A stretch of DNA of 64,000 nucleotides from Aetokthonos hydrillicola CCALA 1050 (GCF_017591665.1 NZ_JAAKGC010000030.1:19483-83482), one strand, 5' to 3'; positions 44,028-64,000 are shown, counted from the first letter of the stretch. Numbers and translations are program-made. The notes: generated from the letters alone by a model not told the origin.

Positions 44028-44043
44028 AATTTCGATTCTCGTT

Positions 44044-45207: not shown

Positions 45208-45416
45208 TGATTCCTCCTTATATCAAACGTCCGTTATAAAATAATGCAAAAGAATTCAGGAGCCAGGAGCCAGAATTCAGAATTAAATTCTGTATGATTG
45301 GTGTGAATTGCGGTAAGAAAAGCCGTTTTTTTATCCTGGAGACTAGGAAAAATCTTGAAATCTTGACTTCAGACATGGGGTATTCTGACTCCTGAATTCT
45401 GACTTCTGAGTTCTTT

Positions 45417-47188: not shown

Positions 47189-47471
47189 TTGTTATACAAT
47201 AACACAAATTGCTAATTTATCATTCACGCACTAAGTGAGGCTGATCATCTTGGGTGATTTACACCGAATAAATATACCGCAGCCGTTGGTTTCGACTTCG
47301 CTCAACCAACTGAGAGATCGAGAGTTGAGCGAAGTCGAAACTCGCACTCCCCAGGTATTTTCTTTCTAGGAAATCACCTTGGTTCGTAGTTGCGCTTTAG
47401 CGCACTCAAGTCCAGCTACAAACCTTTCAAGTTATTTACATAACTTTACGTATTATTTCCTATTCACATCT

Positions 47472-48158
47472 TTAGTATTGCCCAAGAAAAATTTGTTTGG
47501 CAGTTAAATCTAATTCAGGAAAAGCGCGAGAAATAATGCGATCTCCTCCTCGGAATGGAGTAATCTCGTATTCATCATCAATTAACTGGCAGATAGACAG
47601 CGTTGGTTGTTTAGGATTGCCAGTAAACTTTTTAGCTCCAATTCCGAGATAATCGACGATCCAATACTCAGGAATTTTAAGGCTTTCGTATTTACCAAAC
47701 TTCATATAGTAGTCATCATCCCAATTAGTTGAAACAACTTCGACAACTAATGGAATTGAAGCACCGTACATTACCGTTGATTTTTTCTTCCACAACGGCT
47801 CATTTACAAGATTCGTCCGATTGAGTAATAAAACATCAGGTGAATAACCCGATTCATTTTTCTCTGGTTTGACTAGTGCTGTTTTTGGAATAAAGTAGGG
47901 TAAGTTTAACCGAACATATTCAAAGCTGATTTTACCTGCTATGAAGCCCACAATATCTTCATGGTCACCTACTGGTTGAACCATTTCAACAATGACTCCA
48001 TCGTGTAGTTCGTACCGTCCCCCGGTCGGTCGCCATTCTGTGAATTCTTCAAAGGTTACAAGCTGGGGTAGAGGTTGAGTCATAATGGTATCAAATTTCG
48101 CTACATTCTTTACTGAAATTATGGCTGTGCTTTTGGTCTTAGCTTTTGCACCTTCCAA
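47472..48158 (-). CDS. Uma2-family (DUF820) putative restriction-endonuclease-fold protein
   Basis: 228 aa with PEYWIVDY and D...E.K motifs typical of the cyanobacterial Uma2 family. Confidence 0.7.
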   Translation of the reverse strand: MEGAKAKTKSTAIISVKNVAKFDTIMTQPLPQLVTFEEFTEWRPTGGRYELHDGVIVEMVQPVGDHEDIVGFIAGKISFEYVRLNLPYFIPKTALVKPEKNESGYSPDVLLLNRTNLVNEPLWKKKSTVMYGASIPLVVEVVSTNWDDDYYMKFGKYESLKIPEYWIVDYLGIGAKKFTGNPKQPTLSICQLIDDEYEITPFRGGDRIISRAFPELDLTAKQIFLGQY

Positions 48159-48743
48159 GACTAATTATGTGCGATCTACGCTCCGCGCACCAGCGAAGCT
48201 ATCGCCAAGAGCGCTGCACTCAAGAGGGCAAATTCCCGTACTCCATTGGCTAATAACAGCAACTAACATGAGAGTACTATCTAAGTAAATCGTATGTAAT
48301 TTTTAATACAAATAAAAAATCTTAACAAAATAACCGTCGTTAAACATTACCTCTCTAGGAATGAAATTTCTCCAGAGTTGGGAAAACCCTTTATATAGGA
48401 ACTTTGGCGGATCATTGGTCATATCGGTTAGGAAAACTAATATGAGAGAAAAATTCAGCAAATCTAAAGAAATGCTTAAACATTAAGAAAAATTGCCAGT
48501 TTTATGAGAATCTAACTCAAAGATTACAACTCTTATTTCAAACGGGGTCAGCTTTTATAAAGATCCTGAACATAACACACTCTGGCACTTCTACAGTTTC
48601 TGTAGAGGTGTCGTTGTGTGCTAATAAAGTTGTTACGCGTCAACATCTGTATATTCTTAAATTAAGCTACTTTACAGTAGTAACTTAATTCTAAGCACAT
48701 CCAAAGGCTCGTCCCTCGCAAGCACAACAGAGAAGTAATCCAA

Positions 48744-49115
48744 ATGACAATTTTTAACAAAGATATCGTTGCACTGGCAAAAGAGAATAGCTTTTTTCGC
48801 CAAGAAATTCTGACAAATCAGCATAGTCAAATCGTGTTGATGAGTATTGAGCCAGGCGATGAAATTGGCGAGGAAACCCACGATGTAGACCAAGTGTTAG
48901 TATTCGTTGCTGGGACAGGTGAAGCTGTGTTGAACGGCGATCGCAGCACAGTTGAAGCAAACTCAATGGTTGTTGTTCCAGCAGGCACATTGCATAATTT
49001 TATCAACACTGGCTCTGTAGCGCTGAAGCTCTTCACTATTTATACGCCACCAGAAGAAGCTCCAGGAACGTTGCATCGAACGAAAGCAGAAGCGGTTGCT
49101 GCTGAAGGACATTAG
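48744..49115 (+). CDS. Cupin-domain protein
   Basis: 123 aa with the GDEIGEETHDVDQVLVFVAGTGEAVLNGD ... VVVPAGTLHNF two-motif cupin pattern. Confidence 0.7.
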   Translation: MTIFNKDIVALAKENSFFRQEILTNQHSQIVLMSIEPGDEIGEETHDVDQVLVFVAGTGEAVLNGDRSTVEANSMVVVPAGTLHNFINTGSVALKLFTIYTPPEEAPGTLHRTKAEAVAAEGH

Positions 49116-49213
49116 TTTGAATAAAGTGGCGATCGCTGGTTCGCCACTGCGCTTCCCAATCGCCCCCTGACTAAGCTGCTTTTTGCACAAGTCAAACAAA
49201 AGCTAAAATATCA

Positions 49214-49930
49214 CTACTGGGGCTTTTTTCCATTCCAATCTGTACAGACAAGACGCCCATGGACTAGCTTTCCTTTGACAATACCCGTATTTGGTAATAT
49301 ATTAGCTAGCGAGAATTGCCCTGAGACATTCTTAAACAATAGAGGCAGCATAGTAGCCAAGATAGCACCATGTGCTACAAATATCAGCACTTTAGGAGTG
49401 GATGAATATTGCTCTATTGTTTGGGTAACAAATGGTATAAAACGCTCTCGCTGATCGTTATAGCTCTCTCCACCAGGAGCTTTTGTATCGTATAGACCAT
49501 TTAGCAACCAATCTGATAGTATTTGCAAGATTTGTGGCTGTGAGGTCGTTGTGCCAAAATTAACCTCGACAATTTGAGGAGCAAGTTGTAATTGAATATT
49601 TTTTTCAAACGATAGAGCGTCAGCGGTTTGGACAGTTCGTAAGCGGGTTGAAGTGAAAATAGCCGAAACATCAATATCTTTAATCGACGAAGCAAGATCC
49701 TTAACCTGCTGAATACCTTTAAGTGTGAGAGGATAAGTAACCCCTTCGTCTAGAGGCAGATTTGATTGCGGAGGTAAAACGTTGATTTCACTCTCACCAT
49801 GTCTAATAAACCAAACTTCAAACCTAGAGCCATCTCCCGCCTTTGCTTTTGATAAAAGGGCAGAAAGTCCAACGAATGCTGGTGCTGCAGAGATAGCTTT
49901 GATTATTGTACGCCTATTAAGTCTTTTCAC
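49214..49930 (-). CDS. Histidine phosphatase (phosphoglycerate-mutase-like) family protein with a Tat-type signal
   Basis: 238 aa with the WFIRHGESE catalytic RHG motif and an N-terminal RRTIIKAISAAPAFVGLSALL signal. Confidence 0.7.
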   Translation of the reverse strand: MKRLNRRTIIKAISAAPAFVGLSALLSKAKAGDGSRFEVWFIRHGESEINVLPPQSNLPLDEGVTYPLTLKGIQQVKDLASSIKDIDVSAIFTSTRLRTVQTADALSFEKNIQLQLAPQIVEVNFGTTTSQPQILQILSDWLLNGLYDTKAPGGESYNDQRERFIPFVTQTIEQYSSTPKVLIFVAHGAILATMLPLLFKNVSGQFSLANILPNTGIVKGKLVHGRLVCTDWNGKKPQ

Positions 49931-50099
49931 TTTGATTAGTCGATATTCTGGGTAAATTTTTCAGAAAGAAACTCACGCAAGTCGCAATAATGCGATTTGC
50001 TCTACAGAATAAGCGTGATCTATTAAGCTACTTTTAAGGAATCGTTAAAGCAAAATGCTACTTGGGTTAAAACTGATACCAATTCAAAAAATGATCGAT

Positions 50100-50450
50100 A
50101 CAAATGTAGGTTGGGTTGAGGAACGAAACCCAACAAAGACAAGGCTTTGATGTGTTGGGTTTCACTTCGTACCCCTACGGGGAAGCAAGCTACAACCCAA
50201 CCTACCCATCTGTTTCATTTTTTTTCGTGAAATGGTATGACTAATTTTACGTAGGTTGGGTTGAGGAACGAAACCCAACAAAGACAAGGCTTTGATGTGT
50301 TGGGTTTCACTTCGTTCTACCCAACCTACCCATCTGTTTCATTTTTTTCGTGAAATGGTATGACTAATTTTACGTAGGTTGGGTTGAGGAACGTAGACGC
50401 CCCTGGCGGCTTCCCGCAGGGTAACCCAACAATTTTAGGATTGTGGTGGC
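50100..50450. repeat. Tandem array of ~125-bp dispersed palindromic repeat units (gtaggttgggttgaggaacgaaacccaacaaagacaaggctttgatgtgttgggtttcac...)
   Basis: Two near-identical units plus a third variant copy. The same family occurs at five other loci in the window. Confidence 0.85.
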
Positions 50451-50550
50451 GATCGCATTGCTCCCGACTTCAAAACCTTACTCGACCAAACAGATCACGC
50501 GCCAACTCCTCATCTAAGCAACCTTGTAGGAACTTCAAACCTTTCGTGGT

Positions 50551-51051
50551 ATGGGATCCGGTAAACAATTAGCTGTTCTCAAGGGTCATAACGGTGAGGT
50601 CACAAGTGTAGTATTCAGCCCAGATGGTAAGCTTTTGGCTACTGATGGTCGTGGTGGATACTACTACACAACTGCTCGCATATGGGATACATCAGGTAAA
50701 CAATTAGCTGTTCTCAAGGCTGATCAAGATGTGGACTGGAGTGTAGTATTCAGCCCAGATGGTAAGCTTTTGGCTACTGGTGGAAACGACGGAACTGCTC
50801 GCATATGGGATACATCAGGTAAACAATTAGCTGCTCTCAAGGGAGAGCAAGGTACGGTCAATAGTGTAGTATTCAGCCCCAATAGTAAGCTGTTGGCTAC
50901 TGGTGGAGAGGACGGAACTGCTCGCTTATGGCAAGTTGGGGGACTTGATGAAATACTAGCAGTGAGTTGTGATTGGGTAGGTAATTATGTAAAGAGAAAT
51001 CCTAATGTTACAGATCACACCCTGTGCGACGACGCTGGTACTCGAAAATAG
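50551..51051 (+). CDS. WD40-repeat protein fragment (about 4 blades), a possible gene remnant
   Basis: 166 aa of VFSPDGKLLATGG..DGTARIWD units. Successive ~123-bp repeat units are nearly identical at the DNA level. It is too short for a full propeller and abuts a repeat array. Confidence 0.45.
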   Translation: MGSGKQLAVLKGHNGEVTSVVFSPDGKLLATDGRGGYYYTTARIWDTSGKQLAVLKADQDVDWSVVFSPDGKLLATGGNDGTARIWDTSGKQLAALKGEQGTVNSVVFSPNSKLLATGGEDGTARLWQVGGLDEILAVSCDWVGNYVKRNPNVTDHTLCDDAGTRK

Positions 51052-51264
51052 TGTAAAATAAATAACACTCCAACCCTAGTTCTCTAAGCAGCTTTGCGAT
51101 CGCTCTATGTATTAGCACACACTATCGAAGCCAGCGCTTAGGAATTAGTTTAATGACTAAGAATACGATAACTCAGCTCTACGTGAAGTGCGATCCCTTA
51201 ACTATTCTCCTGTCCCCTGTATGCTCAGCAACTGACTCTGCTCATTCAGGGTATTGCTTGCTTG

Positions 51265-51368
51265 AAATATGAAAAGTCTTTCTAGAGTCACAATGTAACC
51301 TTAACAAAGCGATTGAAATATGAAAGGTCTTTCTAAAGTTACAATGTAACCTTAACAAAGTGATTGAC
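51265..51368. repeat. Tandem direct duplication of a ~52-bp unit (aatatgaaaagtctttctagagtcacaatgtaaccttaacaaagcgattg)
   Basis: Two adjacent copies with 4 mismatches, downstream of the HNH gene. Confidence 0.8.
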
Positions 51369-51425
51369 AAGAGCCCTATGCAGAGTGCAATCGCATTCTC
51401 ATATTTAATATGTAACACACTTAGT

Positions 51426-51839
51426 TTAAGGATATTGTTTTTGATTGATTAATGCTTGCCGTTGAAGCACACGATTAGGAACATTAAACTGAAGCAGTCT
51501 TGCAGTCCCTTGACCGATCTGAGTTTTCCCTTCTATTCTCGCGCCCTCAAAATAAAAATGTTCATCCCAAGCCAGACGACGCGGGTTAAACAATGGGACA
51601 ATCTCTTTAGTAAATCGGTCTATAGTCGCGAAATCCGAACCTTTATGACGGTTGCAAGACAAACATGAAAGTGCCAAGTTTTCAGCAATTGTTTCACCCC
51701 CATGCTTTACAGCAATAATATGGTCAACTTCATGAGTATAAATTGAAAAATCTTGATGAATTAAGCAATATTCACAGCGTCCAGCGGCTCTCTCAATGAC
51801 TAGCTTACGTACTTCGGTATCAATTGAATTAGAAGTCAT
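51426..51839 (-). CDS. HNH endonuclease
   Basis: 137 aa. CEYC...HEVDHIIAVKHGGETIAENLALSCLSCNRHK is an HNH motif with a zinc-binding CxxC pair. Confidence 0.85.
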   Translation of the reverse strand: MTSNSIDTEVRKLVIERAAGRCEYCLIHQDFSIYTHEVDHIIAVKHGGETIAENLALSCLSCNRHKGSDFATIDRFTKEIVPLFNPRRLAWDEHFYFEGARIEGKTQIGQGTARLLQFNVPNRVLQRQALINQKQYP

Positions 51840-52219
51840 TTATTTAATTCTGTATAAGCTCGTGCTTTTAGTAAAATCATCATGTGTTCTAATTGCTCAT
51901 AAACATCTAATTCTGCGAATTCCATTGTACTGATTGTTGCAGAACGATTTTTTTCTAATAATTCTTGCAGGCGTTTTTGAACTGGTAATGAAACTTTAAA
52001 AGTAATAATTTCTTCAGGTGTGGGACGCTTTATCAAAAAATCAAGAACTTCTTGATAAACTGCCGTAATATCGGTAGTCTCAGCTTGAGTTTTAGGCTGA
52101 GAGGTTGAAAGTAGATGATCAATGTCTAACAGCCGCCAAAGCAATTCGGGTAAGCGATTTTGCAGTGGTTCTAGACGTTGAGCAAGTTCATCGGGTATTT
52201 GAATTGTTAATTCTGCCAT
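51836..52219 (-). CDS. Hypothetical protein translationally coupled upstream of the HNH endonuclease
   Basis: 127 aa, overlapping the HNH start by 4 nt. Confidence 0.5.
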   Translation of the reverse strand: MAELTIQIPDELAQRLEPLQNRLPELLWRLLDIDHLLSTSQPKTQAETTDITAVYQEVLDFLIKRPTPEEIITFKVSLPVQKRLQELLEKNRSATISTMEFAELDVYEQLEHMMILLKARAYTELNK

Positions 52220-52318
52220 TGTGATTATTCATCGGTATTGAAAGAGCGTTAGCATAAACTAAACAAGCCTGTATATTTTCTAAGGTAGTTACGGAGAATT
52301 TCGTCGGATGTCTAACCT

Positions 52319-52897
52319 TCAGCCTTCTCCTGCGGTGAGTATCTGCTGTGCAGTTAGCCGCAGTTGTGGAAAAGTGTCTGACGAGATCGCTGTACTTCCT
52401 TCAAATATCTTCTCCTCATAAAGTCCCTCAACCAGCGTCAGCATGCTAACTTTATTAGTTTGGGGGTTAACGATCCAATATTCAGAAATTCCCCTAGCAG
52501 CATATTCTGAACGTTTGTAACGATAATCCCTATCTTCGTTTATCTTACCAGGAGAAACAACTTCAACAACCAAAGCAGGTGGGGGCATATCGAGAGTAAT
52601 AGTTGATCGCGTTGCACCTTGTAAAATAGCTGCAAGTTCATCCGTTAGCACAACCAGATCTGGGATGCGAGTTGTAGCACGTCTACCACTAATGACAATT
52701 TCCGCTTTATTACTCAATCTTTTGAGGGAAACAAACTTGAGGAATTGTGATAGTAAGTATATCGCAATTTGAACGTTTTTCGGGCTTTCTGGTGGCATTG
52801 CAACTAACTCTCCAGCCACCAGCTCGTATTGGGTGTCGGTGCCATCGTCGTAATTCAAGTACTCCTCAAGGGTCAGTTTTTTAGAAGTTGTGGTCAT
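52319..52897 (-). CDS. Uma2-family (DUF820) endonuclease-fold protein, second copy
   Basis: 192 aa with [11 protein letters not shown] and PDLVVL...EVVSPG motifs. Confidence 0.7.
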
Positions 52898-53080
52898 AAT
52901 GATGGGGAGTAGCGTACTGAGATTATACCAAACTTAAACCTTGCTTGAATTTAACTTGATGGGTTAAAAGTTTGTACGAGCCTCTTTGTGCGCCCTGAAT
53001 TAGAACAGAATCACTAACCTGCTTGTCACCGTTAGACAGTTTTGTCCTGATCAGAACCAACCCCTAACCCTAACTTTGTA

Positions 53081-54787
53081 ATGTTAGCCCAAGTGCATAA
53101 ATTTTTAACTGCTTCTGTTCATGAAACATCTTCTGAGTATGAGAAACACACCAAAAAATTGCTTTTTTTCTGGTTAAGTCTGAGTCTGGTATTTGCAGGA
53201 TTATATGGTGTTTTAGGACTACAAAAAGCCTTTAGCAGCGAGTACGTAGCTCAGGATGATGCACGAGAATACGTATTTTGGATGCAGCGGTTTGTTGATC
53301 CAGAGTTAATGCCTCATGATTTGATTGCAGATTATTTCAAATCGATTACGCCATTAGGATTTTCTACTGTTTACAAATTAATGGCTAGTCTAGGCATTCA
53401 TCCTTTATTGTTGAGTAAAATCTTGCCCATTGTGCTGGGCTTAATTGTCACTATCTATTGTTTTTGGCTGTGTCTCGAAATTCTTCCAGTGCCGATTGTT
53501 GGATTTATTGCTACTTTACTGCTAAATCAGAGTCTTTGGTTTAAGAGTGACTTGGTTTCTGCTACACCTAAGTCTTTTATATATCCATTGTTGTTAGCAT
53601 TTTTCTACTATCTCTTGCGAGAATCTTGGTTAATTATTTGTTTAATAATTGTACTTGAAGGACTTTTTTATCCTCCACTATTATTGATTTCTTTAGGACT
53701 CTTGTTTATTCGATCGCGCAATAATTATGTTTGGCTAATAGTGATGCTGGGATTAGGATTTCTAGTCATGTTACCCTATGCGATCGCCTCACAGAAATTT
53801 GGACCAGTTGTCAGTGCGTCCCAAGCCTGGAAAATGCCAGAATTCTGGGCACAAGGACGACATCCTTTTTTTGACAATAATTTCTGGCGATTTTGGTTCA
53901 TTGGACAACATAGTGGTATACTACCACCGTTAATGCCTCCCCTAATTTGGATGGGGTTGTTCTTACCAGTGATAGTGCGATATCCATCCCGCTTCCCCTT
54001 GATCAATCTGATCAATACTCAAGTCAAAATATTGCCGCAAATTATCATAGTGTCCTTAACGCTGTTTTTTGCTGCCCATGCCTTGATTTTAAAGCTATTT
54101 TTCCCCACCCGTTACACGGTTCATACTCTGCGAATTGTCATGGCTGTTGCTGCTGCTATCACTTTAACTGTCATGTTGGATGGGTTTCTCCGTGTTGTAA
54201 AGGAACAAAGACGTAAGTGGCAGTTAGTATTAACACTGACTTTAGCCGCTACACTTGTTTTCTATCCTCATTTGTCGGGACGCTTCCCAACAACCGACTA
54301 TCGGCACTCTGAGGAATCAGTATTGTATAAATTCCTGCAAAAGCAACCTAAAGATACTGTTATTGCAACTTTGGCTGACGAGGCTGATAATATACCGACT
54401 TTTGGCCAAAGATCTATTTTAGTAGGTAGAGAATATGCACTTCCTTTCCATCTCGGCTACTACTCCCAAATCCGCCAACGTACCAGCGATTTGATTTATG
54501 CTCAGTACAGTCAGAATTTAGCAACGGCGAAACAACTTATTCAAAAGTACAAAGTTAATTTCTGGCTGCTGGAACGCACAGCTTTTGAGGCTCAGTATCT
54601 GAGCAAAAAAACCTGGCTCAAAAGTTTTCAACCTGCTTTTACACAAGCTCTAAGCAACTTGGAACAATCTACTACTCCAGCTTTAGCAAGATTAATCAAA
54701 GACTGTTCAGTTTTAGAAACCCAGAATTTTAGTTTGTTAAAAGCAGATTGCATCGTAAATACTAAGATATTGGCAAGCACCAGTTAA
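53081..54787 (+). CDS. Large polytopic integral membrane protein, hypothetical
   Basis: 568 aa with many hydrophobic helices in the first 400 aa and a soluble C-terminal domain. Confidence 0.5.
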   Translation: MLAQVHKFLTASVHETSSEYEKHTKKLLFFWLSLSLVFAGLYGVLGLQKAFSSEYVAQDDAREYVFWMQRFVDPELMPHDLIADYFKSITPLGFSTVYKLMASLGIHPLLLSKILPIVLGLIVTIYCFWLCLEILPVPIVGFIATLLLNQSLWFKSDLVSATPKSFIYPLLLAFFYYLLRESWLIICLIIVLEGLFYPPLLLISLGLLFIRSRNNYVWLIVMLGLGFLVMLPYAIASQKFGPVVSASQAWKMPEFWAQGRHPFFDNNFWRFWFIGQHSGILPPLMPPLIWMGLFLPVIVRYPSRFPLINLINTQVKILPQIIIVSLTLFFAAHALILKLFFPTRYTVHTLRIVMAVAAAITLTVMLDGFLRVVKEQRRKWQLVLTLTLAATLVFYPHLSGRFPTTDYRHSEESVLYKFLQKQPKDTVIATLADEADNIPTFGQRSILVGREYALPFHLGYYSQIRQRTSDLIYAQYSQNLATAKQLIQKYKVNFWLLERTAFEAQYLSKKTWLKSFQPAFTQALSNLEQSTTPALARLIKDCSVLETQNFSLLKADCIVNTKILASTS

Positions 54788-55200
54788 CCTCTAAGAGGGT
54801 GTTTGAAAAGTGATTAGCTATGATTTTCATCACATTATTACCCCCCTTAATCCCCCCTTGTAATACCAATTCTAGAAAAGAATCAAACAGATTGGGTAGG
54901 TTGGGTTGAACGAAGTGAAACCCAACAAAGACAAGGCTTCGAGGTGTTGGGTTGAGGAACGAAACCCAACCTACATTTATATCAAATTTTTCGTGAATTG
55001 GTATAAAGGGGGGAAACAAGGAAAATCTAGTTCCCTCCCCTTTATAAGGGGAGGGTTAGGGTGGGGTAAAAAATGTTTGATACATCAATCATGACTTTTC
55101 AAACATCCTCTAACGATTGATGCGATATGGCAAGACACAGGAAAATCCTATTACCAATATCATGGCTAGGTTAATTTCATTTTGTGCTTGGGTGACTCTA

Positions 55201-56448
55201 TTATGGCAAGCGGCTAGTTAAATCTTGAACGTCTCCACAGGTTTTACAGTATGGTAAATTTTTGTAAGTAAGATTATGGCAATTTTGACATTCAATGTAT
55301 TGATAATAACCGCAATAGGGACAATAAGCGTCGTTATGGCGAATTTTTTTTGCACACTTGCTACAACGGGATTTTTGGACTCTGCTAACTGCTTGAAGTT
55401 TAGGATTGAAGATAACTTTTTGGCAAACCTTGATAATTCCAAAACCAATTACTGGAATTAGCAGGATATAAATATAACTGATGAGAAAAAGTAATCCATT
55501 TAAAAGTTTGCCAATAATTTCGACAAGAAACTGAAATATTGCACCAACTTGAAGAAATTCAAAGATTTTAAAGATTAACGGGATAAAAAGAATAACTAGC
55601 AAATGCCAACTCATCAGTAAGATAAGTCCATATCCCTTTCGTTGAGCGAGTTTATAGACTAATAAAGCGACGACAATTAGCGGTAAAAGAAAAAGAGCCT
55701 GAAAACCAAATTGAATACTTGGATACCAAAAGGATGCTCGTTGATAATCTTGCTTAACTTTACTAAATTTCTCCTCATTTTTTAGAAAAGCTATAAAGTT
55801 AGTACTTTCTGGTTTAGCAACTAATCCATTTTTGAGATTATCAATTTCCTTTTCAAGGGTTGTAATTGTACGATTATTTTCGTCTAACTCTTGTTTTGCT
55901 TTTTCAGCCCCAACTTCATTAATTGATTGTTCACGGGTTTGACCTGCGATTTTTTCTAAAAGAGTCGAGTCATATTGACTGCGAATATTACTATTCTCTT
56001 TTTTAAGAGTACTGATTTGTGTTTGCTTCTGGTCAATAGATTTTACAGTTTGCCGATTTTCGGAATTGTTAATTTTATCTTTGTATTCGGCATAGTTCAA
56101 ACATGTTGGTGAAACTTTCCCTAAATGTTTTTCTGCAGCTTGTTGATATGTTTGCTTTTGACTAATCTGATTGTCTCTCTCATATGGTAAGGAAATCTTA
56201 ATAATTTGATAGTCTTTATCTTTCGTGGTTTCTGTTTTGTAGTTTTGCCAGTCAGCATAACACGGATAAGCCTCTGAAGGGCTGAGATACCATCTACTAA
56301 TATCATCTAGTCCAGTAAAAACATTGATTAAGATAAAAATGTCAATCAAAATAATGACAATCAAACTCACTTTATTTAATGGTTCGTTGTTAATTGTCCT
56401 TGAGCTATTAAAAAATTGACTAAATAGACGGCGTATATTAGTGAGCAT
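55201..56448 (-). CDS. Membrane protein with a coiled-coil region and C-terminal double zinc-ribbon
   Basis: 415 aa with TM helices and the C-terminal CSKCAKKIRHNDAYCPYCGYYQYIECQNCHNLTYKNLPYCKTCG. It lies directly downstream of the caspase-NACHT gene on the same strand. Confidence 0.5.
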   Translation of the reverse strand: MLTNIRRLFSQFFNSSRTINNEPLNKVSLIVIILIDIFILINVFTGLDDISRWYLSPSEAYPCYADWQNYKTETTKDKDYQIIKISLPYERDNQISQKQTYQQAAEKHLGKVSPTCLNYAEYKDKINNSENRQTVKSIDQKQTQISTLKKENSNIRSQYDSTLLEKIAGQTREQSINEVGAEKAKQELDENNRTITTLEKEIDNLKNGLVAKPESTNFIAFLKNEEKFSKVKQDYQRASFWYPSIQFGFQALFLLPLIVVALLVYKLAQRKGYGLILLMSWHLLVILFIPLIFKIFEFLQVGAIFQFLVEIIGKLLNGLLFLISYIYILLIPVIGFGIIKVCQKVIFNPKLQAVSRVQKSRCSKCAKKIRHNDAYCPYCGYYQYIECQNCHNLTYKNLPYCKTCGDVQDLTSRLP

Positions 56449-56858
56449 ATTGTCGTTTTACAAAAGAATAGATGTGCTCCTTCACTGTTGTTTTCAGGGT
56501 GATCTACCTGCCGTAGTAAAAGCGCGATCGCTCTATTATCTGTAATAGCACATCTTTTCCAATGACCCCGATACAAAACTTAAGACTCCAAATATTTGGG
56601 ATTGATTCTTATAAGGATGTAATACCAATTCAAAAAATGATTGATACAAATGTAGGTTGGGTTGAGGAACGTAGACGCCAAAGGCGGCTTCCCGCAGGGT
56701 AACCCAACACATCAAATCCTTGTCTTTGTTGGGTTTCACTCCGTACCCCTACGGGGAAGCAAGCTACAACCCAACCTACAGAGTCTTAATGTTTACTTTA
56801 TAAATTATCTCTTACTCTAAGTCATTTTAAATCCGCCAACTTGAAGTTATTACCAATG

Positions 56859-59800
56859 TTATGGAATAGGAACGAAATCATAGTTGCTCTTATTGCCCAG
56901 TTTACCTTCTGTGCGCTCAACTATCACTAAGTGGCTTTTTTGAGAACTTTCGCCGCTATTAAACTGAATCTTACCACTTGCTCCGTCAGCACTAAAATCT
57001 TTTGCTTGCAAGGTTTCAGCTATACCCTCACGAGTGTTTTTTCTGTGCAAAGCAGCGATTAACGCTTTTGTTGCATCATAAGACGTGGCTGTTCGCCAGC
57101 TTACCAATCCTCCCCAGAGATGCTGAGATGAAGCAGTAAATTTTGAACCAGATTTATGAGCAGTTTTCCAATCCCAAGGAACCGCAACAATCATTCTATT
57201 AGCACTTTCTCCACCAAGTTCTAAGGTGACAGGCGAGTATAAACTATCCCCACCTAAAACTAACATACGCCGTTTTTTTGCGTTTTCATTTAAAACTTCC
57301 AAAGCTGGATTCAATTTTTCCGAATCAGGTAATAGTAGCATAATTTCTGCGCCAGCTTTAATTGAATCACCAATACTTTTCTGAGCATTAAAATCTCTCA
57401 AAGAAAAATCAAATTTACTCACTATATACTGGGATTTTATTGTTCGTTCAATTTCTGATTTCAAAGAACTACTATAGTCATTTTTAGAGTTATAGAAAAT
57501 GGTGATGTTTCTGGTATCTAGTTGACGCTTCTGCATATAGTCATTTAAGGCTTCTGCAGTTTGTTGATTGCTGGGAACAGTGCGGAAAAGATACTTACCA
57601 AATCCAGACACATATCTTAGATTGACTGAAGTGCTAACTGGAAAAATTGCTACTAGTCTTTTATCACTATAAACTTTGCTTGTTACTTTAGCGACATCGC
57701 TAGTAAAGTTTCCAACAACACCTAGTACATTGGGCATTTCTGTTAATGCGATCGCAACTTTTTGAGCAACGCTAGGATCATTTTCATCATCAGCGATTAA
57801 TACTCGCAGCTTTACACCCTTTATACCACCTGCTAGGTTAATTTCATTTTGTGCTAGGGCAACTCCTCGCAAAATTTCTAATGAACCATTAACATTGCTA
57901 CCTAGAGGAACTGAAACAGCGATCGTATAAGATTTGTGATCACCAATTTCCGCATTATTTTTATAAATTAATGCTTCTGGATCGTTAGGATTTTGCTTTA
58001 AATAATTTTGAAAATCTGTCGCAGCTTCAGTAAATTTACCATCAATAAACGCATCTACTCCAGCAATTTTTGCGCGATAAGGTCGATTTTGTACAAGGAT
58101 TTTTTCCCCAAAGCTGATTCTCAACTTTGGCAAAGTATTGTCGCAGATATTTTTTATTGATGTGTCATTATTAGGATAATTTTTTATCAGGTAACAACCC
58201 CTTGCGAATGCGTTGTCGAAATTCAATAGTTCCGTCTCCCAAAGCAGCGCAGTATTATCAGCACTTGCTGAAGCTAGTGTTTTGCCATCATCACTAAAGC
58301 TAACGCTATAAACCTGCTGCGAGTGTCCTTTGAGAGTAGTGATTTCTTCGCCTTTCGTTGTATTCCAGATTTTAATAGTTTTGTCATCACTTCCTGATGC
58401 TAAAATATCTGAATTAGGACGAAAACTCACACTATTAATACTTCCAATATGTCCTTTTAGTGTGTTAAGTAGCTTACCGTCAGGAATGCTCCAGAGTTTA
58501 ATAGTTGTGTTGTTACTTCCTGAAGCTAAAATTTTACCGTCAGAACTAAAACTGAGACTATTAACTCCTCCCATCGATGCTGAAAGTGTCTTAATAACTC
58601 GACGCTGCTCTACATCCCAAAGTGTGATAGTACTTATACTCCCTGAAGCTATCGTCTTACCGTCTGGACTAAAGCTGATGCTGAGAACTTTATTTTTTTG
58701 CTCTGGCAATGTTGCAATTAAATGACCTTGTCTATCCCAAAGCTTGATAAATTTGTCATCACTTCCTGAAGCGAATATCATACCATCTGGACTAAAGCTC
58801 AAGCCACCAACCCTGTCGAGATGTTTTGTTAGCGTTGTCAGTTTTACCCCATTCGCTGGATCCCAAAGTATTATATTTCCATTAATATCACCTGATGCTA
58901 GTATATGACCATCTGGACTAAAGGTGGTGGTAGTAATCTCACTTTCATGACCAACGAGTGTCCTTAGTTCTTTCCCATCGAACTTTCTCCAGAGTTTAAT
59001 ATCGTGTTCACTACCTCCAGTAGCCACAGTCTTACCATCATGGCTGATACTAATAGTAAATAGTGTTTGACTATGCCCTGTAAGAGGAATAACGTCATCA
59101 CCATCAGTGCGCCAGAGTTTGATATCAGCGTCAATACCTCCTGAAGCTAGAAGCTTACCATCCGGGCTAATATTAACGGTACGAATAGGATTACTATATG
59201 TCAAAGTTTTTAGATCTTTGCCATCTTTGACACTCCAGAATTTGATGGTGTTGTCTTTGCTCGCAGAAATCAAAGTTTTTCCATCAGCGCTAAAGGCTAT
59301 GCTATAAACATCAGATTTATGTCCATGAAGGGTTGTAATTTGTTTACCTTTTTGAACATTCCAGAGTATAATGGTGTTGTCAGCACTTGCAGAAGCTAAT
59401 ATATTACTGTCTGGACTAAAGCTGACGCTATAAACGAGAGCGCGATGCCCCGGTAATATTCTGAGTAGCTTACCATTTTGATCCCAAATCCACACTTTTT
59501 TATCTTCACTACCTGCCGCAATTAACTTACCATCAGGGCTAAAGCTAACTCCATTAAAGTTGAAAGAAGTACTCTGATGATTGTTACCTTTTTTTCCAGC
59601 TTCAGGAGTTTCTTGTAGAAGTTCAACGGTCTTAAGTAACTTTAACTTACTATCATTCACACTCCAGAGTTTAACAGTTCCATCCCAACTAGCTGAAGCT
59701 AGTATCTTCCCATCCGGACTAAAACTCACACTATAAATCTCTGCTGTATGCTCATTGCTTTTATTATCAAGTACTTTGCCGTTAATACTCCAGAGTTTGA

Positions 59801-62636
59801 TAGTTCTGTCATAACTAGCTGAAGCTAGGATTTGTCCATTTGGACTAAAACTTACACTATTAACTATATTTTTATGCCCTTTAAGAGTATTGAGCAAATT
59901 GCCTTTTAAATCCCAAAGTTTAATTGTTTCGTCAACACTTGCTGAAGCAATGATCTGTCCATTAGGGCTAAACTTGATGTTCCTGATCGTAGCGTTATGT
60001 GCTAACCAATCGTTGTGTTCTCGTAACCAGTAAACTGTTTGATCGAGAGCAGTCATTGTCTGTGACTTGATATTAGTTTCTATTCCTATTGGTAATTCTA
60101 GTTGTTTAGCCGCATTCAAACTTTTGACTAATGCTTCTAACTGCTGGCTGGAGTTAAAAGACACTTCGCTAGAAGCTAGGAATTTTTCTATCTGTTCAAT
60201 TTGAGTTTGACGCCACTGAATAAAAGCAATAGCTGATATGAGAAAAAACAGACCAAAAAGCAAACTGTCTCTCAGTCGTTTGTTGTTTTTTCGTTTTTGT
60301 AAACTAAGCCGCACAAATTGTGATTCTAGCTGATTGAACCAATTATCTGATGAGTAAAGTATTTTTTTTAGAACTTCCAAATATGGGTTTGTATCCCATA
60401 AAAACTTTGTTTGATCGTATCTTTTTCGAAAATATTTTAACCAATTATAAGGATTAGTATTCCAATGAAAATCACCGGGTTTGTGACTATCCCACTCCTG
60501 TGCAGCAGCGGTTAACCTCTGTTGTATAGTAATGACATTTTCTACTAAATTCTGCTGTTTAGGTTGTAACCACTCGCGCAGATGACTCCATCCACGTACC
60601 AAAGCATCATGAGCTGGTTCAACATATTCATGTCCGTTCTCATCTTGTCCTTTTACCAGTAACCGCGCTGCTGTAAACTCTTGTATTACGTCATCGACTT
60701 TTTCTTTAACTGGCTTTGGATATTCGAGTTCCTTCATAAAAACTCGTCTGCGAGCTAAATCACCACTACTTTCCGCCACCATCCTTAACATTACATGTTT
60801 AATGATTTTGCTATATTCTGGGTTTTTATTCACTAACTTATGGTATATTTCATCAGCTCTTTTGGTAAGGCTACCAGTGACTTTACCCAATTCTTCATAA
60901 TCCCTGTGTGTAATAATCCGGTTGTATTCTGGATATTCTTGAACATTCTTAAAAAATTTGCGGTAGAGTTCACTAAGAGTGAAAGAAAGTAATGATAAAC
61001 CGCCAGGCATATTTATCACGTCATCAATCAACTTGTCTACTAAAAGACTTTCTGATTCTTGTGTTTGTCCCTCAAAAAATAAGGCTATCTTTTCAGCCGG
61101 TTCCGCAATTGCTTCTCGTAATTCTTCACGAGTCATTTGTGACACTTGAAGCCGCCCTCTTGCCAAATAGACTTGAGCTTTTTCTTTAAATTCAGATTGA
61201 AGTAGCGAACGCAATACAGGTTCGTAGTCTGAGCGTAGTGTAACAACAATACGTAACTGTTGAGGGTATTCGACTATTGCCTTAGCTAACTGTTGTAAAA
61301 ACCGCTTTTGCTCTTTTTCAGAATGACACAGAGTGACTAATTCTTCAAATTGATCAATGAATAATAGTAATTTTCTGTTAAGATTTCTTAAAGTCCAATT
61401 ACCAACTATATCAGCAAAATAAGAGGAGTCTTCGTTAAGCTTATTTACCAAAATCTCAGTTTTACTGCCTTGAAAATTTGAAACCTCAAGCTTATGAAGT
61501 TCTCGTGCTAAAGCAGTTATAGGAGAATCCCCAGGGCGAACAGGATCTAAAATTTGAAATTCAGGTTCTTCTAATTTAGGTATAAGTCCTGCTTTCACTA
61601 AGCTAGATTTTCCTGAGCCAGAAGTTCCTAAAACAACAGTCAGTGGTTCCTTATTAACCTTCTCCTCTAGTTTTTCAATTAACCTTTTTCTCCCAAAAAA
61701 TTTATCTTGATCTTCTTTTTCAAAAGATAGCAATCCTTTGTAGGGATATCTTGGATCTTTTTCATCAGGTAGCGGAGCTTTTCTTAACGATCTATCTGCA
61801 TCAAATTCTGGTGTAAAAAATAAATATTTACCAAAATCATGTTTTTTAAGTTGACAATATCCAGGAGTTTGTCCGGTGTTCAAATCTAGAAATTTATCTT
61901 CTATATATTGAACAATCTCAGTAGTTGTAATAACACTATCTTTGTTAGTATCTGCGTTTTTTTCATTTGCTGGATCTAGAGCTTCAAGTAGTGCTTTTGC
62001 AAAGGGAGAGTGTTGACCGTCTTCTCCCCTGTCCCCAAAGCCGTACAAGACATCTGCGGCTGTTTCGTTATATGCAGACGAGGTAATAACTTCTTGTGCG
62101 CAACCAGTAATATAACGTTTATAGCGTTCTAAGTACATTTGTTCTTGCGATAGTTCTGCTTGTCTAACGACCCAACGGAAGCTCCCAGCAAAGCAGCAAT
62201 CTAAGATAATTAACAAATGACGGCTTTCTAGTTTCACTAGACTATTATGCAGTCGTCGCATTGGTAACAACCTACTGTTGTCACCTCTCATAGCATCTTG
62301 GGGATAGATAAAGCCTTGAGGTCCATCATCTTTTTCATCCCCTTTAATAGCAATACCATGCCCAGCAAAGTAAAATAAAACACGGTCATTAGGTTCTACT
62401 TTTTTGCTACCATCAGACAAGGGGATAATTTGGTTTTCAAAATTTGTTAATAATTCATTAAGCGTTTTACTTGTAGCCTGTTCATCTAAAATAGGTAAAA
62501 CGTCATAGTTATATATATCTCTCAAAACTTTTATGAGTTTATTAGCGTCATTTGTAGCAGTTTTTAATTGCCAACTAGGTTCGGCATATTTGCTGATACC
62601 AATAACGATTGCGTAACTGTTTTTGAATTCAGGCAT
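56859..62636 (-). CDS. Giant multidomain protein: caspase-like peptidase C14, NACHT/STAND P-loop NTPase, a putative TM segment, ~14 WD40 repeats and a C-terminal periplasmic-binding-protein type 1 (LivK-like) ligand-binding domain
   Basis: 1925 aa. The caspase His/Cys dyad is in YFAGHGIA and LIILDCCFAGS. Walker A is VVLGTSGSGKSSLVKAG. The hydrophobic segment is LLFGLFFLISAIAFIQW. Many GH...WD blades follow. The C-terminus (VLIADDENDPSVAQKVAIALTEMPNVLGVVGNFTSDV...) is PBP1-like. Confidence 0.85.
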   Translation of the reverse strand: MPEFKNSYAIVIGISKYAEPSWQLKTATNDANKLIKVLRDIYNYDVLPILDEQATSKTLNELLTNFENQIIPLSDGSKKVEPNDRVLFYFAGHGIAIKGDEKDDGPQGFIYPQDAMRGDNSRLLPMRRLHNSLVKLESRHLLIILDCCFAGSFRWVVRQAELSQEQMYLERYKRYITGCAQEVITSSAYNETAADVLYGFGDRGEDGQHSPFAKALLEALDPANEKNADTNKDSVITTTEIVQYIEDKFLDLNTGQTPGYCQLKKHDFGKYLFFTPEFDADRSLRKAPLPDEKDPRYPYKGLLSFEKEDQDKFFGRKRLIEKLEEKVNKEPLTVVLGTSGSGKSSLVKAGLIPKLEEPEFQILDPVRPGDSPITALARELHKLEVSNFQGSKTEILVNKLNEDSSYFADIVGNWTLRNLNRKLLLFIDQFEELVTLCHSEKEQKRFLQQLAKAIVEYPQQLRIVVTLRSDYEPVLRSLLQSEFKEKAQVYLARGRLQVSQMTREELREAIAEPAEKIALFFEGQTQESESLLVDKLIDDVINMPGGLSLLSFTLSELYRKFFKNVQEYPEYNRIITHRDYEELGKVTGSLTKRADEIYHKLVNKNPEYSKIIKHVMLRMVAESSGDLARRRVFMKELEYPKPVKEKVDDVIQEFTAARLLVKGQDENGHEYVEPAHDALVRGWSHLREWLQPKQQNLVENVITIQQRLTAAAQEWDSHKPGDFHWNTNPYNWLKYFRKRYDQTKFLWDTNPYLEVLKKILYSSDNWFNQLESQFVRLSLQKRKNNKRLRDSLLFGLFFLISAIAFIQWRQTQIEQIEKFLASSEVSFNSSQQLEALVKSLNAAKQLELPIGIETNIKSQTMTALDQTVYWLREHNDWLAHNATIRNIKFSPNGQIIASASVDETIKLWDLKGNLLNTLKGHKNIVNSVSFSPNGQILASASYDRTIKLWSINGKVLDNKSNEHTAEIYSVSFSPDGKILASASWDGTVKLWSVNDSKLKLLKTVELLQETPEAGKKGNNHQSTSFNFNGVSFSPDGKLIAAGSEDKKVWIWDQNGKLLRILPGHRALVYSVSFSPDSNILASASADNTIILWNVQKGKQITTLHGHKSDVYSIAFSADGKTLISASKDNTIKFWSVKDGKDLKTLTYSNPIRTVNISPDGKLLASGGIDADIKLWRTDGDDVIPLTGHSQTLFTISISHDGKTVATGGSEHDIKLWRKFDGKELRTLVGHESEITTTTFSPDGHILASGDINGNIILWDPANGVKLTTLTKHLDRVGGLSFSPDGMIFASGSDDKFIKLWDRQGHLIATLPEQKNKVLSISFSPDGKTIASGSISTITLWDVEQRRVIKTLSASMGGVNSLSFSSDGKILASGSNNTTIKLWSIPDGKLLNTLKGHIGSINSVSFRPNSDILASGSDDKTIKIWNTTKGEEITTLKGHSQQVYSVSFSDDGKTLASASADNTALLWETELLNFDNAFARGCYLIKNYPNNDTSIKNICDNTLPKLRISFGEKILVQNRPYRAKIAGVDAFIDGKFTEAATDFQNYLKQNPNDPEALIYKNNAEIGDHKSYTIAVSVPLGSNVNGSLEILRGVALAQNEINLAGGIKGVKLRVLIADDENDPSVAQKVAIALTEMPNVLGVVGNFTSDVAKVTSKVYSDKRLVAIFPVSTSVNLRYVSGFGKYLFRTVPSNQQTAEALNDYMQKRQLDTRNITIFYNSKNDYSSSLKSEIERTIKSQYIVSKFDFSLRDFNAQKSIGDSIKAGAEIMLLLPDSEKLNPALEVLNENAKKRRMLVLGGDSLYSPVTLELGGESANRMIVAVPWDWKTAHKSGSKFTASSQHLWGGLVSWRTATSYDATKALIAALHRKNTREGIAETLQAKDFSADGASGKIQFNSGESSQKSHLVIVERTEGKLGNKSNYDFVPIP

Positions 62637-62712
62637 AAAATGTGTACCTGCTTTTGGTAAAATACTGCAATTTTAAATGTCTATATATATGGGGCATAGG
62701 GCAGATAAACAG

Positions 62713-62746
62713 TTATCAGTTATCAGTTATCAGTTATCAGTTATGT
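62713..62746. repeat. STRR heptamer tandem repeat (CAGTTAT)x5
   Basis: Read directly from the sequence. Confidence 0.9.
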
Positions 62747-62844
62747 GTTCATCTTTGGGTTTAAGTCTGCCACCATACCCCTTGATCACTGATCACTGAA
62801 AACTCCTCACTGCGCCCCTGCTCCTCTGCTCCCTTTCAATAGCT

Positions 62845-63990
62845 CTAAACCCTAGCACAAGATGCGTTATGAGCTTGATCAATGGCGTCGGCGACATTGT
62901 CTTGTCGTGTAAGGGTAAGAGAGACTTGTTTTGTCATCCAATTATCGTTACTTGTGTCTGTATTATCTTCAGAACTAGTAGTTTCGCGATTATAGATATT
63001 ATGCATTAAGTGATTTAAGGAACCTTTTAATCCTCCTGAAGAACGACTTTTGGGTGGTGGCGAATCAAGTCCTGGTTGCTGTAGCAACCCAGCATCAAAC
63101 TCTGAAGTGCTGACAATTAACTTGAAAATTTCTTGGTATTCAGTAATGCCGCGTGATAAAAAACTTTTTGGAATTACATAACTCAATTTTCGACTTGTCA
63201 AGATTGCGCCTGGTTGTGATTTTTTTGGTAAGAATAAACTAGTTGTTTCCTCGAAGAAAGGAGGAATGCAAACTTCGTAATCTCCAGCTAGTTCTACTAC
63301 CTGAAAGTAGAGGTCTTTTTGGCTATTATTTGTGATTTTGATCTGTATGGTTGGTGCTGTCCACTTACCATTATTATAAGTGTACTCAGCACGCATTTCG
63401 GAAGTTGTTTGTTTTGAGGAAATTGTTTTCTCTGCTGAACAGATGATTACTTCCATCTCCACATCATTTAGTTTAATTTGGCTTGTGAGTGGAGTGTTCA
63501 AGTCGAGAATATTCTGCCAACGTGCAATGTGTTCTAATCGTTGAATGACTTGATGTGCAAACTCTGGTGTGTAATCGTCTCTAGCTAGAGATGGTATTTC
63601 TGGAACCGGTGTCACTAACGGACTTTTATCTGAAGCTTTTTTAATCCAGTATTGATTTTTTTCAGCTTCTATGTAGTAGTTGGCGTCTGAAACTTGTGCT
63701 ACTTCTCGAACAAATAACGAATTTTGATTATTGTAACCACATGTTGACAGTTCTTGCCGAGCAAGTTCTACACCTATAGGGTCACCTTGAAAACAAACTT
63801 TTAGCTGTGGTAATGGTAAGCTGATAATAACTGCAAAGTAAGCTTTTTCAGTTGATAAATGAGTTTTATCACCGATAATTTCTACTTTGCTTAATTCTGG
63901 CAGCACTTGCGTTACCCTAGCTCGACAAATAGCATTCGAGAATTCGCGCAGTTGTTCGGGTGAGCTGTTGTCTGGGAATATTGCTAACAA
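62845..63990 (-). CDS. Hypothetical protein upstream of the caspase-NACHT gene; the N-terminus may extend beyond the window end
   Basis: 381 aa from the ORF track. The called start is a TTG 10 nt from the window edge. No recognisable motif. Confidence 0.4.
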   Translation of the reverse strand: MLAIFPDNSSPEQLREFSNAICRARVTQVLPELSKVEIIGDKTHLSTEKAYFAVIISLPLPQLKVCFQGDPIGVELARQELSTCGYNNQNSLFVREVAQVSDANYYIEAEKNQYWIKKASDKSPLVTPVPEIPSLARDDYTPEFAHQVIQRLEHIARWQNILDLNTPLTSQIKLNDVEMEVIICSAEKTISSKQTTSEMRAEYTYNNGKWTAPTIQIKITNNSQKDLYFQVVELAGDYEVCIPPFFEETTSLFLPKKSQPGAILTSRKLSYVIPKSFLSRGITEYQEIFKLIVSTSEFDAGLLQQPGLDSPPPKSRSSGGLKGSLNHLMHNIYNRETTSSEDNTDTSNDNWMTKQVSLTLTRQDNVADAIDQAHNASCARV

Positions 63991-64000
63991 AGCCTCTTCA

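Follow-up and report, generated by a model that had tools for sequence, protein, structure and literature searches.

A predicted single-pass orthocaspase–STAND protein of Aetokthonos hydrillicola combines WD40 repeats with a LivJ-like binding domain

Introduction

Asplund-Samuelsson et al. 2012 (PMC3501461) catalogued metacaspases joined to NACHT and WD40 domains as well as a metacaspase bearing an ANF_receptor domain, and combinations of a STAND nucleoside triphosphatase (NTPase) with a caspase are classically linked to death or immunity pathways (PMC8195603; PMC3501461). A 2020 review proposed that orthocaspases with the order caspase-AAA_16/NACHT-transmembrane helix (TM)-WD40 expose WD40 outside and initiate a caspase cascade that runs from receptor to executioner (PMC7475262). 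A 2021 survey found the Peripla_BP_6 domain in 8 of 473 cyanobacterial orthocaspases (PMC8283722); two entries in its supplement are proteins of 841 residues in which Peptidase_C14 is followed by Peripla_BP_6, one of them with a helix at residues 379-401. This layout, a caspase followed by one helix and a periplasmic-binding-protein (PBP) domain, is credited to Jiang 2010 and Asplund-Samuelsson 2012. No description of a STAND-caspase protein carrying both WD40 and PBP was found in open-access text. In this study, we describe such a protein, encoded in a 64,000-nucleotide stretch of the genome of A. hydrillicola CCALA 1050 (NZ_JAAKGC010000030.1, 19483-83482; hereafter the window), and analyze its domains, predicted topology, relatives, and neighbors.

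The membrane 'true' orthocaspases Ava_0039, Ava_3079, and GEI7407_1667 (PMC7475262) have the same Peptidase_C14 dyad, P-loop STAND NTPase, single helix, and WD40 domain as the Aetokthonos protein, and the caspase-AAA_16/NACHT-TM-WD40 orthocaspases (PMC7475262) have the same predicted topology, with the protease inside and WD40 outside. By contrast, the Aetokthonos protein has an extra C-terminal module of 450 residues, made up of TPR-like helices and a LivJ-like PBP, and its NTPase is now classed as nSTAND1, whereas NACHT or AAA_16 appears in the descriptions of those orthocaspases. Orthocaspases of the caspase-TM-Peripla_BP_6/ANF_receptor type (approximately 841 residues, such as Nostoc punctiforme WP_012410137.1), a layout that we also found in three representative sequences (P0281, P0312, and P0383), share with it a cytoplasmic caspase, one helix, and an outside type I PBP of the same subfamily. 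They lack both the STAND NTPase and WD40, whereas the PBP of the Aetokthonos protein is parted from its helix by 14 blades. The Aetokthonos protein is a composite that unites WD40 and PBP; membrane orthocaspases with WD40 or ANF-receptor domains on the outside had already been described in reviews.

Results

Domain organization of the 1925-residue protein

The window holds an uninterrupted, ATG-started open reading frame (ORF) of 1925 codons plus a stop at 56859..62636 on the minus strand, as given by the ORF list and its translation. The product is 100% identical to an NCBI protein (P0001) named 'nSTAND1 domain-containing NTPase [Aetokthonos hydrillicola]'; the organism is a filamentous, true-branching cyanobacterium. 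Profile searches with the whole protein and with excised segments gave the domain order Peptidase_C14, nSTAND1, a single hydrophobic helix, 14 WD40 repeats, a short helical linker, and a LivJ-like PBP fold, all encoded on the minus strand. A preliminary description of this DNA had proposed both the 1925-residue ORF and the order of a caspase His/Cys dyad, a STAND NTPase, a hydrophobic segment, WD40, and a LivK-like PBP; the uninterrupted frame, the database identity, and the profile searches bear out both. The protein belongs to a common, catalogued cyanobacterial orthocaspase-STAND family, as a composite variant and not as a new kind.

The Peptidase_C14 (caspase-like p20) domain spans residues 8-260 (61857..62615; PF00656, E = 1.6e-17, 64.4 bits against a cut-off of 21.4). 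In an alignment to structures of the yeast metacaspase Yca1 (4f6o/7qp0), the catalytic dyad was intact: His93 (62358-62360) lies in an FAGHG motif aligned to the GHG of Yca1, and Cys148 (62193-62195), the second Cys of DCC in LDCCFAG, falls on the Cys of DSCHSG. The His and Cys motifs are retained in 113/120 and 119/120 homologues, respectively. Loss of the dyad in alignment had been named beforehand as a finding that would speak against the proposal, and the dyad holds in both comparisons. By profile and dyad, the domain is predicted to be a 'true' orthocaspase, with proteolysis that would prefer Arg or Lys at P1. The label of an EACC1-associated caspase (NCBIfam NF047832) was rejected with a score of 57.6 bits against a curated cut-off of 140, and NCBIfam gave sub-threshold matches only.

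The following domain, residues 298-719 (60480..61745), is an nSTAND1 STAND-type NTPase (PF20703, E = 7.8e-96, 322 bits against a cut-off of 27.1), with profile positions 1-375 of 379 covered. Its Walker A motif, GTSGSGKS (residues 337-344, 61605-61628), is retained in 117/120 homologues, and its Walker B motif reads LLLFIDQFEE. The domain had initially been labeled NACHT; the NACHT profile (PF05729) scored 22.2 bits, below the Pfam gathering cut-off of 26.7 and 300 bits lower than nSTAND1, and this label was dropped. The STAND class is common to both assignments, but the NACHT family is not; Kaur et al. 2021 (PMC8195603) named nSTAND1 as a STAND clade in its own right.

Fourteen WD40 repeats occupy residues 876-1470 (58227..60011; Pfam WD40, 14 stretches, E = 1.8e-137), a region predicted to be extracytoplasmic. 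The sequence would provide enough blades for two seven-bladed propellers. The repeats keep a register of 41-42 residues, and their mean identity to one another is 36% in protein and 60-79% in DNA. These values led us to reject recently homogenized, hypervariable repeats of the fungal NLR type; the repeats appear to be old and diverged.

The C-terminal domain is a LivJ-like binding fold

A linker with a three-helix, TPR-like pre-domain (residues 1471-1570, 57927..58226) joins WD40 to the C-terminal domain; the structure model places its helices at positions 20-30, 34-47, and 52-63 of the model, and a weak TPR_11 match was found. The linker starts with RISFGEKIL, a motif found after the signal anchor of stand-alone PBP homologues. 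This region is matched in a 41-sequence family alignment, and an RISFGEK-type motif is visible in P0190, P0202, and P0161. Residues 1571-1925 (56862..57926) form a type I periplasmic-binding domain of the LivJ/LivK-like Venus-flytrap type, supported by Peripla_BP_6, ANF_receptor, and the structure model. Peripla_BP_6 matched residues 1571-1897 with E = 2.4e-30 (106.8 bits against a cut-off of 31.7), and ANF_receptor matched with E = 1.3e-15; failure of this region in a profile search, likewise singled out in advance as counterevidence, did not occur. A sequence search of the Protein Data Bank (PDB) with the domain led to Leu/Ile/Val-binding proteins.

An AlphaFold model of residues 1502-1925, computed with the 41-sequence alignment, reached a pLDDT of 89.9 and a pTM of 0.90. 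Its top PDB matches by Foldseek were 4n0q, 3hut, 4q6b, and 3ip5; of these, 4n0q, 4q6b, and 3ip5 are Leu- and Ala-bound binding proteins of the LivJ/LivK type, with target-normalized TM-scores of 0.81-0.87, and Venus-flytrap modules of class C G-protein-coupled receptors stand lower on the same list. The model thereby confirms a predicted two-lobed type I PBP fold for residues 1571-1925. When aligned to the family profile, LivJ Ser79, Thr102, Tyr150, and Glu226 map to S1646, T1669, Y1721, and D1797; the 41-sequence alignment shows no variation at S1646, Y1721, and D1797 and almost none at T1669. These LivJ residues hold the α-carboxylate and α-ammonium groups of the ligand. An amino-acid-like ligand is plausible for the domain because the LivJ anchoring residues are conserved in the PBP family. 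The numbering of the Escherichia coli LivJ sequence used in the alignment fits the ligand contacts given in the literature.

The stand-alone relatives of this domain, approximately 470 residues long, form a widespread cyanobacterial family; the members listed show 45-49% identity, nearly all of them at 99-100% coverage. This family appears to have donated the C-terminal module of the Aetokthonos protein. At four stand-alone loci that we read (L004 5562-9491, L006 7001-10754, L007 7001-10367, and L008 3215-8416), one or two PBP_like_2 genes were present in every case (4/4). A Ser/Thr kinase gene stands next to the PBP gene at 2/4 loci and two to four genes off elsewhere: it is adjacent in L004, in the same cluster in L008, and approximately 3 kb upstream in L006; none was called in L007. 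No ABC permease or ATPase gene was present at these four loci. The stand-alone PBP, kinase, and PBP_like_2 genes look like a sensor cluster, and such neighbors together with the lack of transporter genes point to a role in sensing rather than transport.

Predicted topology places the two sensor modules outside the cytoplasm

The predicted transmembrane helix, residues 788-808 (LRDSLLFGLFFLISAIAFIQW, 60213..60275), follows the basic stretch KRKNNKRLRD. Its 19-mer at residues 788-806 is the sole strongly hydrophobic one in the 1925-residue protein (Kyte-Doolittle maximum 1.96). In 103/119 homologues, a hydrophobic 19-mer separates the NTPase from the first WD40 blade; it is conserved in position and not in sequence, which upholds the earlier proposal of a putative transmembrane segment at this place. 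Over 15 residues on either side of the helix, the mean number of Lys and Arg residues is 5.6 on the N-terminal side versus 1.7 on the C-terminal side, and the N-terminal side has the excess in 103/103. Because of this excess, the positive-inside rule would put the caspase and NTPase in the cytoplasm and WD40 outside.

The location of the PBP was compared across 150 representatives carrying the module, obtained by an exhaustive representative search and domain mapping. In most architectures the PBP comes shortly after a predicted helix: TM-PBP, X-TM-PBP (approximately 800 residues, caspase-TM-PBP included), and caspase-nSTAND1-TM-PBP. An N-terminal signal-anchor helix is present in all five stand-alone relatives whose sequences were read, and the fused module begins at RISFGEKIL, i.e., just past the position of that anchor. 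Among the same representatives, the caspase-nSTAND1-TM-WD40-PBP forms have no second helix between WD40 and PBP, and both modules should therefore lie in one compartment. We strongly infer a single-pass, N-in/C-out protein with the caspase and nSTAND1 inside and WD40 and PBP outside, the outside compartment being the periplasm or possibly the thylakoid lumen. The suggestion, made from this DNA at the outset, of an extracytoplasmic or small-molecule ligand sensed by the C-terminal part is strengthened by the helix flanks and the PBP architectures.

The core is common and the PBP-extended form is recurrent

More than 100 of the 120 matches listed align from residue 1 to approximately 1500, with 69-81% query coverage and 36-48% identity. 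The caspase-nSTAND1-TM-WD40 core of approximately 1450 residues abounds in filamentous cyanobacteria; the form extended by the PBP is less frequent than the core, yet recurrent. A close fused orthologue, P0002 of Scytonema sp. UIC 10036 (1933 residues), is 64% identical over 100% of the query, colinear, and almost gapless; the individual annotated domains reach 63-72% identity, and the membrane helix and the short linkers 43-58%. The sensor domains thus showed no faster divergence than the enzyme domains. A second fused orthologue, from Scytonema sp. PMC 1069.18, is a partial sequence, and the Aetokthonos protein forms a clade with the two Scytonema sequences (64-67% identity). The PBP-extended order also recurs in at least 13 further clusters at 50% identity, with lengths of 1889-2700 residues, including Phormidium ambiguum IAM M-71 WP_073597500.1 (2330 residues) and Microcoleus sp. 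K1-B1 WP_333484618.1 (1905 residues). The Scytonema P0002, Phormidium, and Microcoleus proteins have an identical domain order and PBPs that are 45-67% identical, but their lengths and WD40 counts vary, and the caspase-nSTAND1-TM-WD40-PBP relatives in the database carry automated names only. In four other clusters, the PBP comes straight after the helix without WD40, as in Mojavia pulchra MBW4566220.1 (2973 residues).

STAND-linked PBPs are mostly each other's nearest neighbors; beyond its two Scytonema relatives, the Aetokthonos clade is equally close to a stand-alone PBP and a STAND-linked PBP, at 50% identity. The nearest orthologue lacking the PBP, P0004 of Scytonema sp. NUACC21 (1526 residues), stops just past WD40, and no PBP gene follows it at its locus. 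The UIC 10036 protein is colinear across the fusion at 64% identity, and the fusion is therefore not an assembly or frameshift artifact. These comparisons indicate that the fusion is real and that the PBP module was gained or lost within the family. A scan of a contig collection with the PBP region matched only a Clostridia locus, unrelated and 26% identical, with Aetokthonos itself not among the matches, and exact look-ups of the 1925-residue protein and of P0277 gave no record.

Neighboring genes

The gene had been described as the middle member of a possible three-gene operon, following a 381-residue protein. That upstream protein, with its TTG start, is an artifact: the frame runs open to base 64000 and belongs to a second Peptidase_C14 (orthocaspase) gene, of which the end of the window and of the contig leaves only the 3' part (62845..64000, minus strand; at least 384 codons). 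The fragment aligns at 65% identity with residues 323-684 of a 684-residue Peptidase_C14 protein and encodes the noncatalytic C-terminal region of an orthocaspase; its NCBI entry is a partial caspase (P0389, 384 residues) at the end of an 83,482-bp contig. The operon is not supported either, as the gaps are 208 nt to the upstream orthocaspase and 410 nt to the downstream 415-residue gene, and the neighbors are not conserved across orthologous loci. The large gene probably acts as a self-contained unit, not as part of a fixed three-gene operon.

A same-strand caspase-family gene lies upstream at 3/6 loci examined, or 2/5 when Aetokthonos is excluded: with the 208-nt gap in Aetokthonos, with an intervening methyltransferase gene in Scytonema NUACC21, and with a 78-nt gap and a different C-terminal region in a metagenomic locus (L011). 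No upstream caspase gene was found at the UIC 10036, Brasilonema, and Moorena loci. In the metagenomic locus (L011 1-7923), the PBP-bearing protein of 2145 residues (P0098) is preceded, across the 78 nt, by a Peptidase_C14-DUF7379-LCAT-like protein of 1142 residues, and a divergently transcribed CHAT-nSTAND1-WD40 gene also lies upstream, so that the locus is a protease-STAND cluster. In Tolypothrix sp. FACHB-123 (L010 1222-5103), a homologue of the upstream caspase (612 residues) is followed, after 70 nt, by a same-strand gene for a KAP_NTPase protein of 657 residues, a further case of a caspase gene beside an NTPase gene. The pairing with a caspase across loci is suggestive and facultative, and the upstream orthocaspase is a possible facultative partner.

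The downstream gene (55201-56448, minus strand) encodes a putative zinc-ribbon membrane protein of 415 residues with an N-terminal helix at residues 29-47, at least four further predicted hydrophobic segments at residues 247-339, and four CxxC motifs; its DZR match is sub-threshold (24.3 versus 27.3 bits), and its long hydrophilic stretch is possibly a coiled coil. It was not found at the five other loci examined, and it has no similarity to the product of the gene downstream of P0098. The 410-nt spacer holds a palindromic element resembling a miniature inverted-repeat transposable element (56651-56780) with terminal inverted repeats TGTAGGTTGGGTT...AACCCAACCTACA. The terminal 13-mer occurs 13 times in the window with at most one mismatch, against 0.05 expected, and further sites of the element (6602-6706, 14728-14869, 33772, 50105-50385, and 54895-54975) lie apparently mostly between ORFs. 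In the 208-nt spacer, upstream of the start codon of the large gene, there are short tandem repeats: CAGTTAT five times with 100% match (62710-62744), TGATCAC 2.4 times (62783-62799), and an 8-mer three times (62810-62833); they are similar to the STRR sequences of cyanobacteria. Scans of 55000-64000 for promoters and terminators gave fewer sites than shuffled sequence, with no terminator-like site in either gap, and are uninformative on cotranscription.

Farther along, the zinc-ribbon gene is adjoined by an ORF of 568 residues (53081-54787, plus strand) with no Pfam match at E ≤ 0.001. An ORF of 166 residues (50551-51051, plus strand) contains only approximately three WD40 repeats (E = 3.1e-33) and may be a piece of another WD40-repeat gene; the palindromic element has copies on both sides of it. 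A run of signaling and secretion genes comprises a TPS-domain two-partner secretion gene (22711-25542, minus strand), an FHA and cNMP-binding gene (26543-29809, plus strand), an FHA and FAD/NAD oxidoreductase gene (29878-31248, plus strand), a CHASE2-Ser/Thr kinase gene (31480-33606, plus strand), and an SPFH/Band 7 gene (34357-36639, minus strand). The window also encodes an RT-Cas1 adaptation protein of 724 residues (12468-14642, minus strand; RVT_1 E = 2e-36, Cas1 E = 1.1e-87), approximately 42 kb away, and an ORF of 537 residues (37203-38816, plus strand) with a Cas12f1-like TNB domain (E = 3.2e-19), which suggests a TnpB/Cas12f-like protein, perhaps of transposon origin.

Discussion

Effector, STAND NTPase, and repeat sensor follow one another in this protein in an order that matches the logic of Avs and bNACHT proteins. 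Its outline would be that of Apaf-1/the apoptosome, Avs, and bNACHT, and by analogy oligomerization and activation by proximity would be expected (PMC8195603). The sensors of these systems are cytosolic, however, whereas the sensor half of the Aetokthonos protein is predicted to lie outside the membrane; its caspase is fused and not recruited, its clade is nSTAND1, and it has no Avs profile match. Single-pass bacterial receptor kinases offer a further parallel. PknB consists of a cytoplasmic kinase, one transmembrane helix, and extracellular PASTA repeats. Like the predicted Aetokthonos protein, it has an N-terminal cytoplasmic enzyme, one helix, and C-terminal ligand-binding repeats outside, but its output is a kinase, whereas the output of the Aetokthonos protein would be a caspase-like protease under the control of a STAND NTPase.

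Other STAND proteins and single-pass receptor kinases suggest, by analogy, the following mechanism. An amino-acid-like small molecule would fill the PBP domain, a macromolecule would bind the WD40 propellers, or both, and binding would alter the association state of the outside part. NTP-dependent oligomerization of the cytoplasmic nSTAND1 domains would then be permitted, and the caspase domains would be activated by proximity. The active protease may cut cytoplasmic substrates, possibly including the neighboring stand-alone orthocaspase; one cell of the filament would then die, stop growing, or undergo some other drastic change of state. Taken as a whole, this model of a single-pass membrane signaling protease of the orthocaspase-STAND family is one that we judge to be probably right, by a small measure.

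Several points weigh against this model. We know of no established mechanism by which a signal from an outside sensor would reach a STAND NTPase by way of one helix. The topology was derived from hydropathy and the positive-inside rule, and it calls for the export of approximately 1100 residues of β-propeller and PBP behind a late internal anchor, which is plausible. Cytoplasmic LivJ-like proteins exist, AmiC being an example, so that the PBP fold by itself is no proof of an outside location. The ligand assignment leans on the alignment to one E. coli LivJ sequence. Finally, orthologues conserve the WD40 and PBP sensors to the same degree as the enzymes (63-72%), and neither the orthologue identities nor the 36% identity among WD40 repeats gives a sign of arms-race diversification of the sensor.

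Two alternatives keep the membrane receptor and differ in what it does. The more specific is a transmembrane, apoptosome-like death receptor, in which a periplasmic amino-acid-type signal, sensed jointly by the LivJ-like domain and the WD40 propellers, would drive an nSTAND1 oligomer, its fused initiator caspase, and then the adjacent orthocaspase as executioner; we consider it rather unlikely. In the other, the same receptor would act without killing: periplasmic amino-acid or nitrogen status, or the products of cell-wall turnover, would lead to limited proteolysis of regulators and to acclimation or differentiation. Such a role accords with the conserved amino-acid-anchoring residues of the PBP pocket, with sensor domains conserved as strongly as the enzymatic ones, and with the stand-alone PBP relatives that lie beside PBP_like_2 genes with a Ser/Thr kinase in a conserved neighborhood; moreover, at least one orthocaspase homologue is reported to serve stress attenuation and not death (PMC7889975). 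The established ties of STAND-caspase combinations to death and immunity (PMC8195603; PMC3501461) count against it, as does the clustering of caspase, CHAT-STAND, and CRISPR genes at some loci, which fits conflict systems better, and we hold the nonlethal role to be a serious candidate that is nonetheless unlikely.

The remaining alternatives dispense with a membrane receptor. A cytoplasmic, Avs-like abortive-infection sensor, in which WD40 and PBP would detect a phage protein or a metabolite in the cytoplasm and set off the caspase effector, with the helix buried or peripheral, would account for the tripartite effector-STAND-repeat order and for the match to the generic 'caspase' model of candidate defence genes in PADLOC (E = 1.4e-13). 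It would also suit the surroundings of some family members: the UIC 10036 orthologue (L001 1-9511) lies approximately 2 kb from cas1/cas2 and 7 kb from RAMP genes, with a UPF0175/DUF3368 pair near; the metagenomic member clusters with CHAT-nSTAND1-WD40 and another caspase gene; and within 10 kb in the window are two Uma2-family genes for putative restriction-endonuclease-like nucleases (52319-52897 and 47472-48158, both minus strand). The RT-Cas1 gene, 42 kb off, is a further hint at conflict systems. Yet PADLOC returned neither an Avs model nor a specific defence system for the 1925-residue protein, its other matches being a WD40-driven HEAT-ARM_XIII and weak mad8 and ATPase-Toprim_I-B hits. 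The conserved helix with its N-terminal excess of Lys and Arg in every case, the membrane-anchored outside position of the PBP module in its other architectures, the absence of hypervariability in the orthologue sensors, and the Brasilonema and Moorena members, which lie among metabolic or regulatory genes, also tell against a cytoplasmic sensor. We regard this explanation as improbable, and the Avs-like identity raised in the preliminary description is not supported, the predicted outside sensor being unlike those of Avs. Uptake as the main role, with the C-terminal domain working as the substrate-binding protein of an ABC importer, is suggested by the NCBI name 'ABC transporter substrate-binding protein' for P0002 and P0003 and by the nearest solved structures, which are transport proteins of the HAAT family. 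No HAAT-type permease or ATPase gene was found, however, among the genes searched in 41988..64000 (within approximately 15 kb of the gene in the window) or at orthologous loci, including L001 and L003, and the nearby ABC genes (43293-46583) are an HlyD/FtsX/ABC_tran set that we interpret as exporter-like. With the PBP covalently tethered to a signaling protein of 1500 residues and its stand-alone relatives also lacking transporter neighbors, we rejected the importer label, with its LivHMGF-type association, and uptake is very improbable. Least probable of all, and already contradicted, is a functionless fusion of two genes by a sequencing or assembly error or by recent loss of a stop codon: the NUACC21 protein does end just past WD40, and the PBP part does equal a complete stand-alone protein minus its signal anchor, but the fusion is colinear in both UIC 10036 and PMC 1069.18, the order is repeated in the other clusters, and NUACC21 lacks a downstream PBP gene.

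If the receptor-protease model holds, the family would have biological meaning beyond this locus. STAND/NLR-type switches are regarded as intracellular sensors, and this family appears to put the sensor half outside; if true, such a switch would sense the outside, not the inside, of the cell, and the death-receptor form would amount to an 'extrinsic' pathway of programmed cell death in a multicellular bacterium. The LivJ-like pocket is far easier to screen for ligands than a WD40 surface and provides a practical entry point to tests of the long-proposed 'extrinsic' orthocaspase pathway and of a STAND switch that spans the membrane. Should a ligand be found, it would allow tractable tests of whether extracellular cues switch bacterial caspase homologues and whether a STAND NTPase can be operated from the far side of a membrane, and it would test receptor-mediated death or state switching in filamentous cyanobacteria, including the toxin-producing 'eagle-killer' Aetokthonos.

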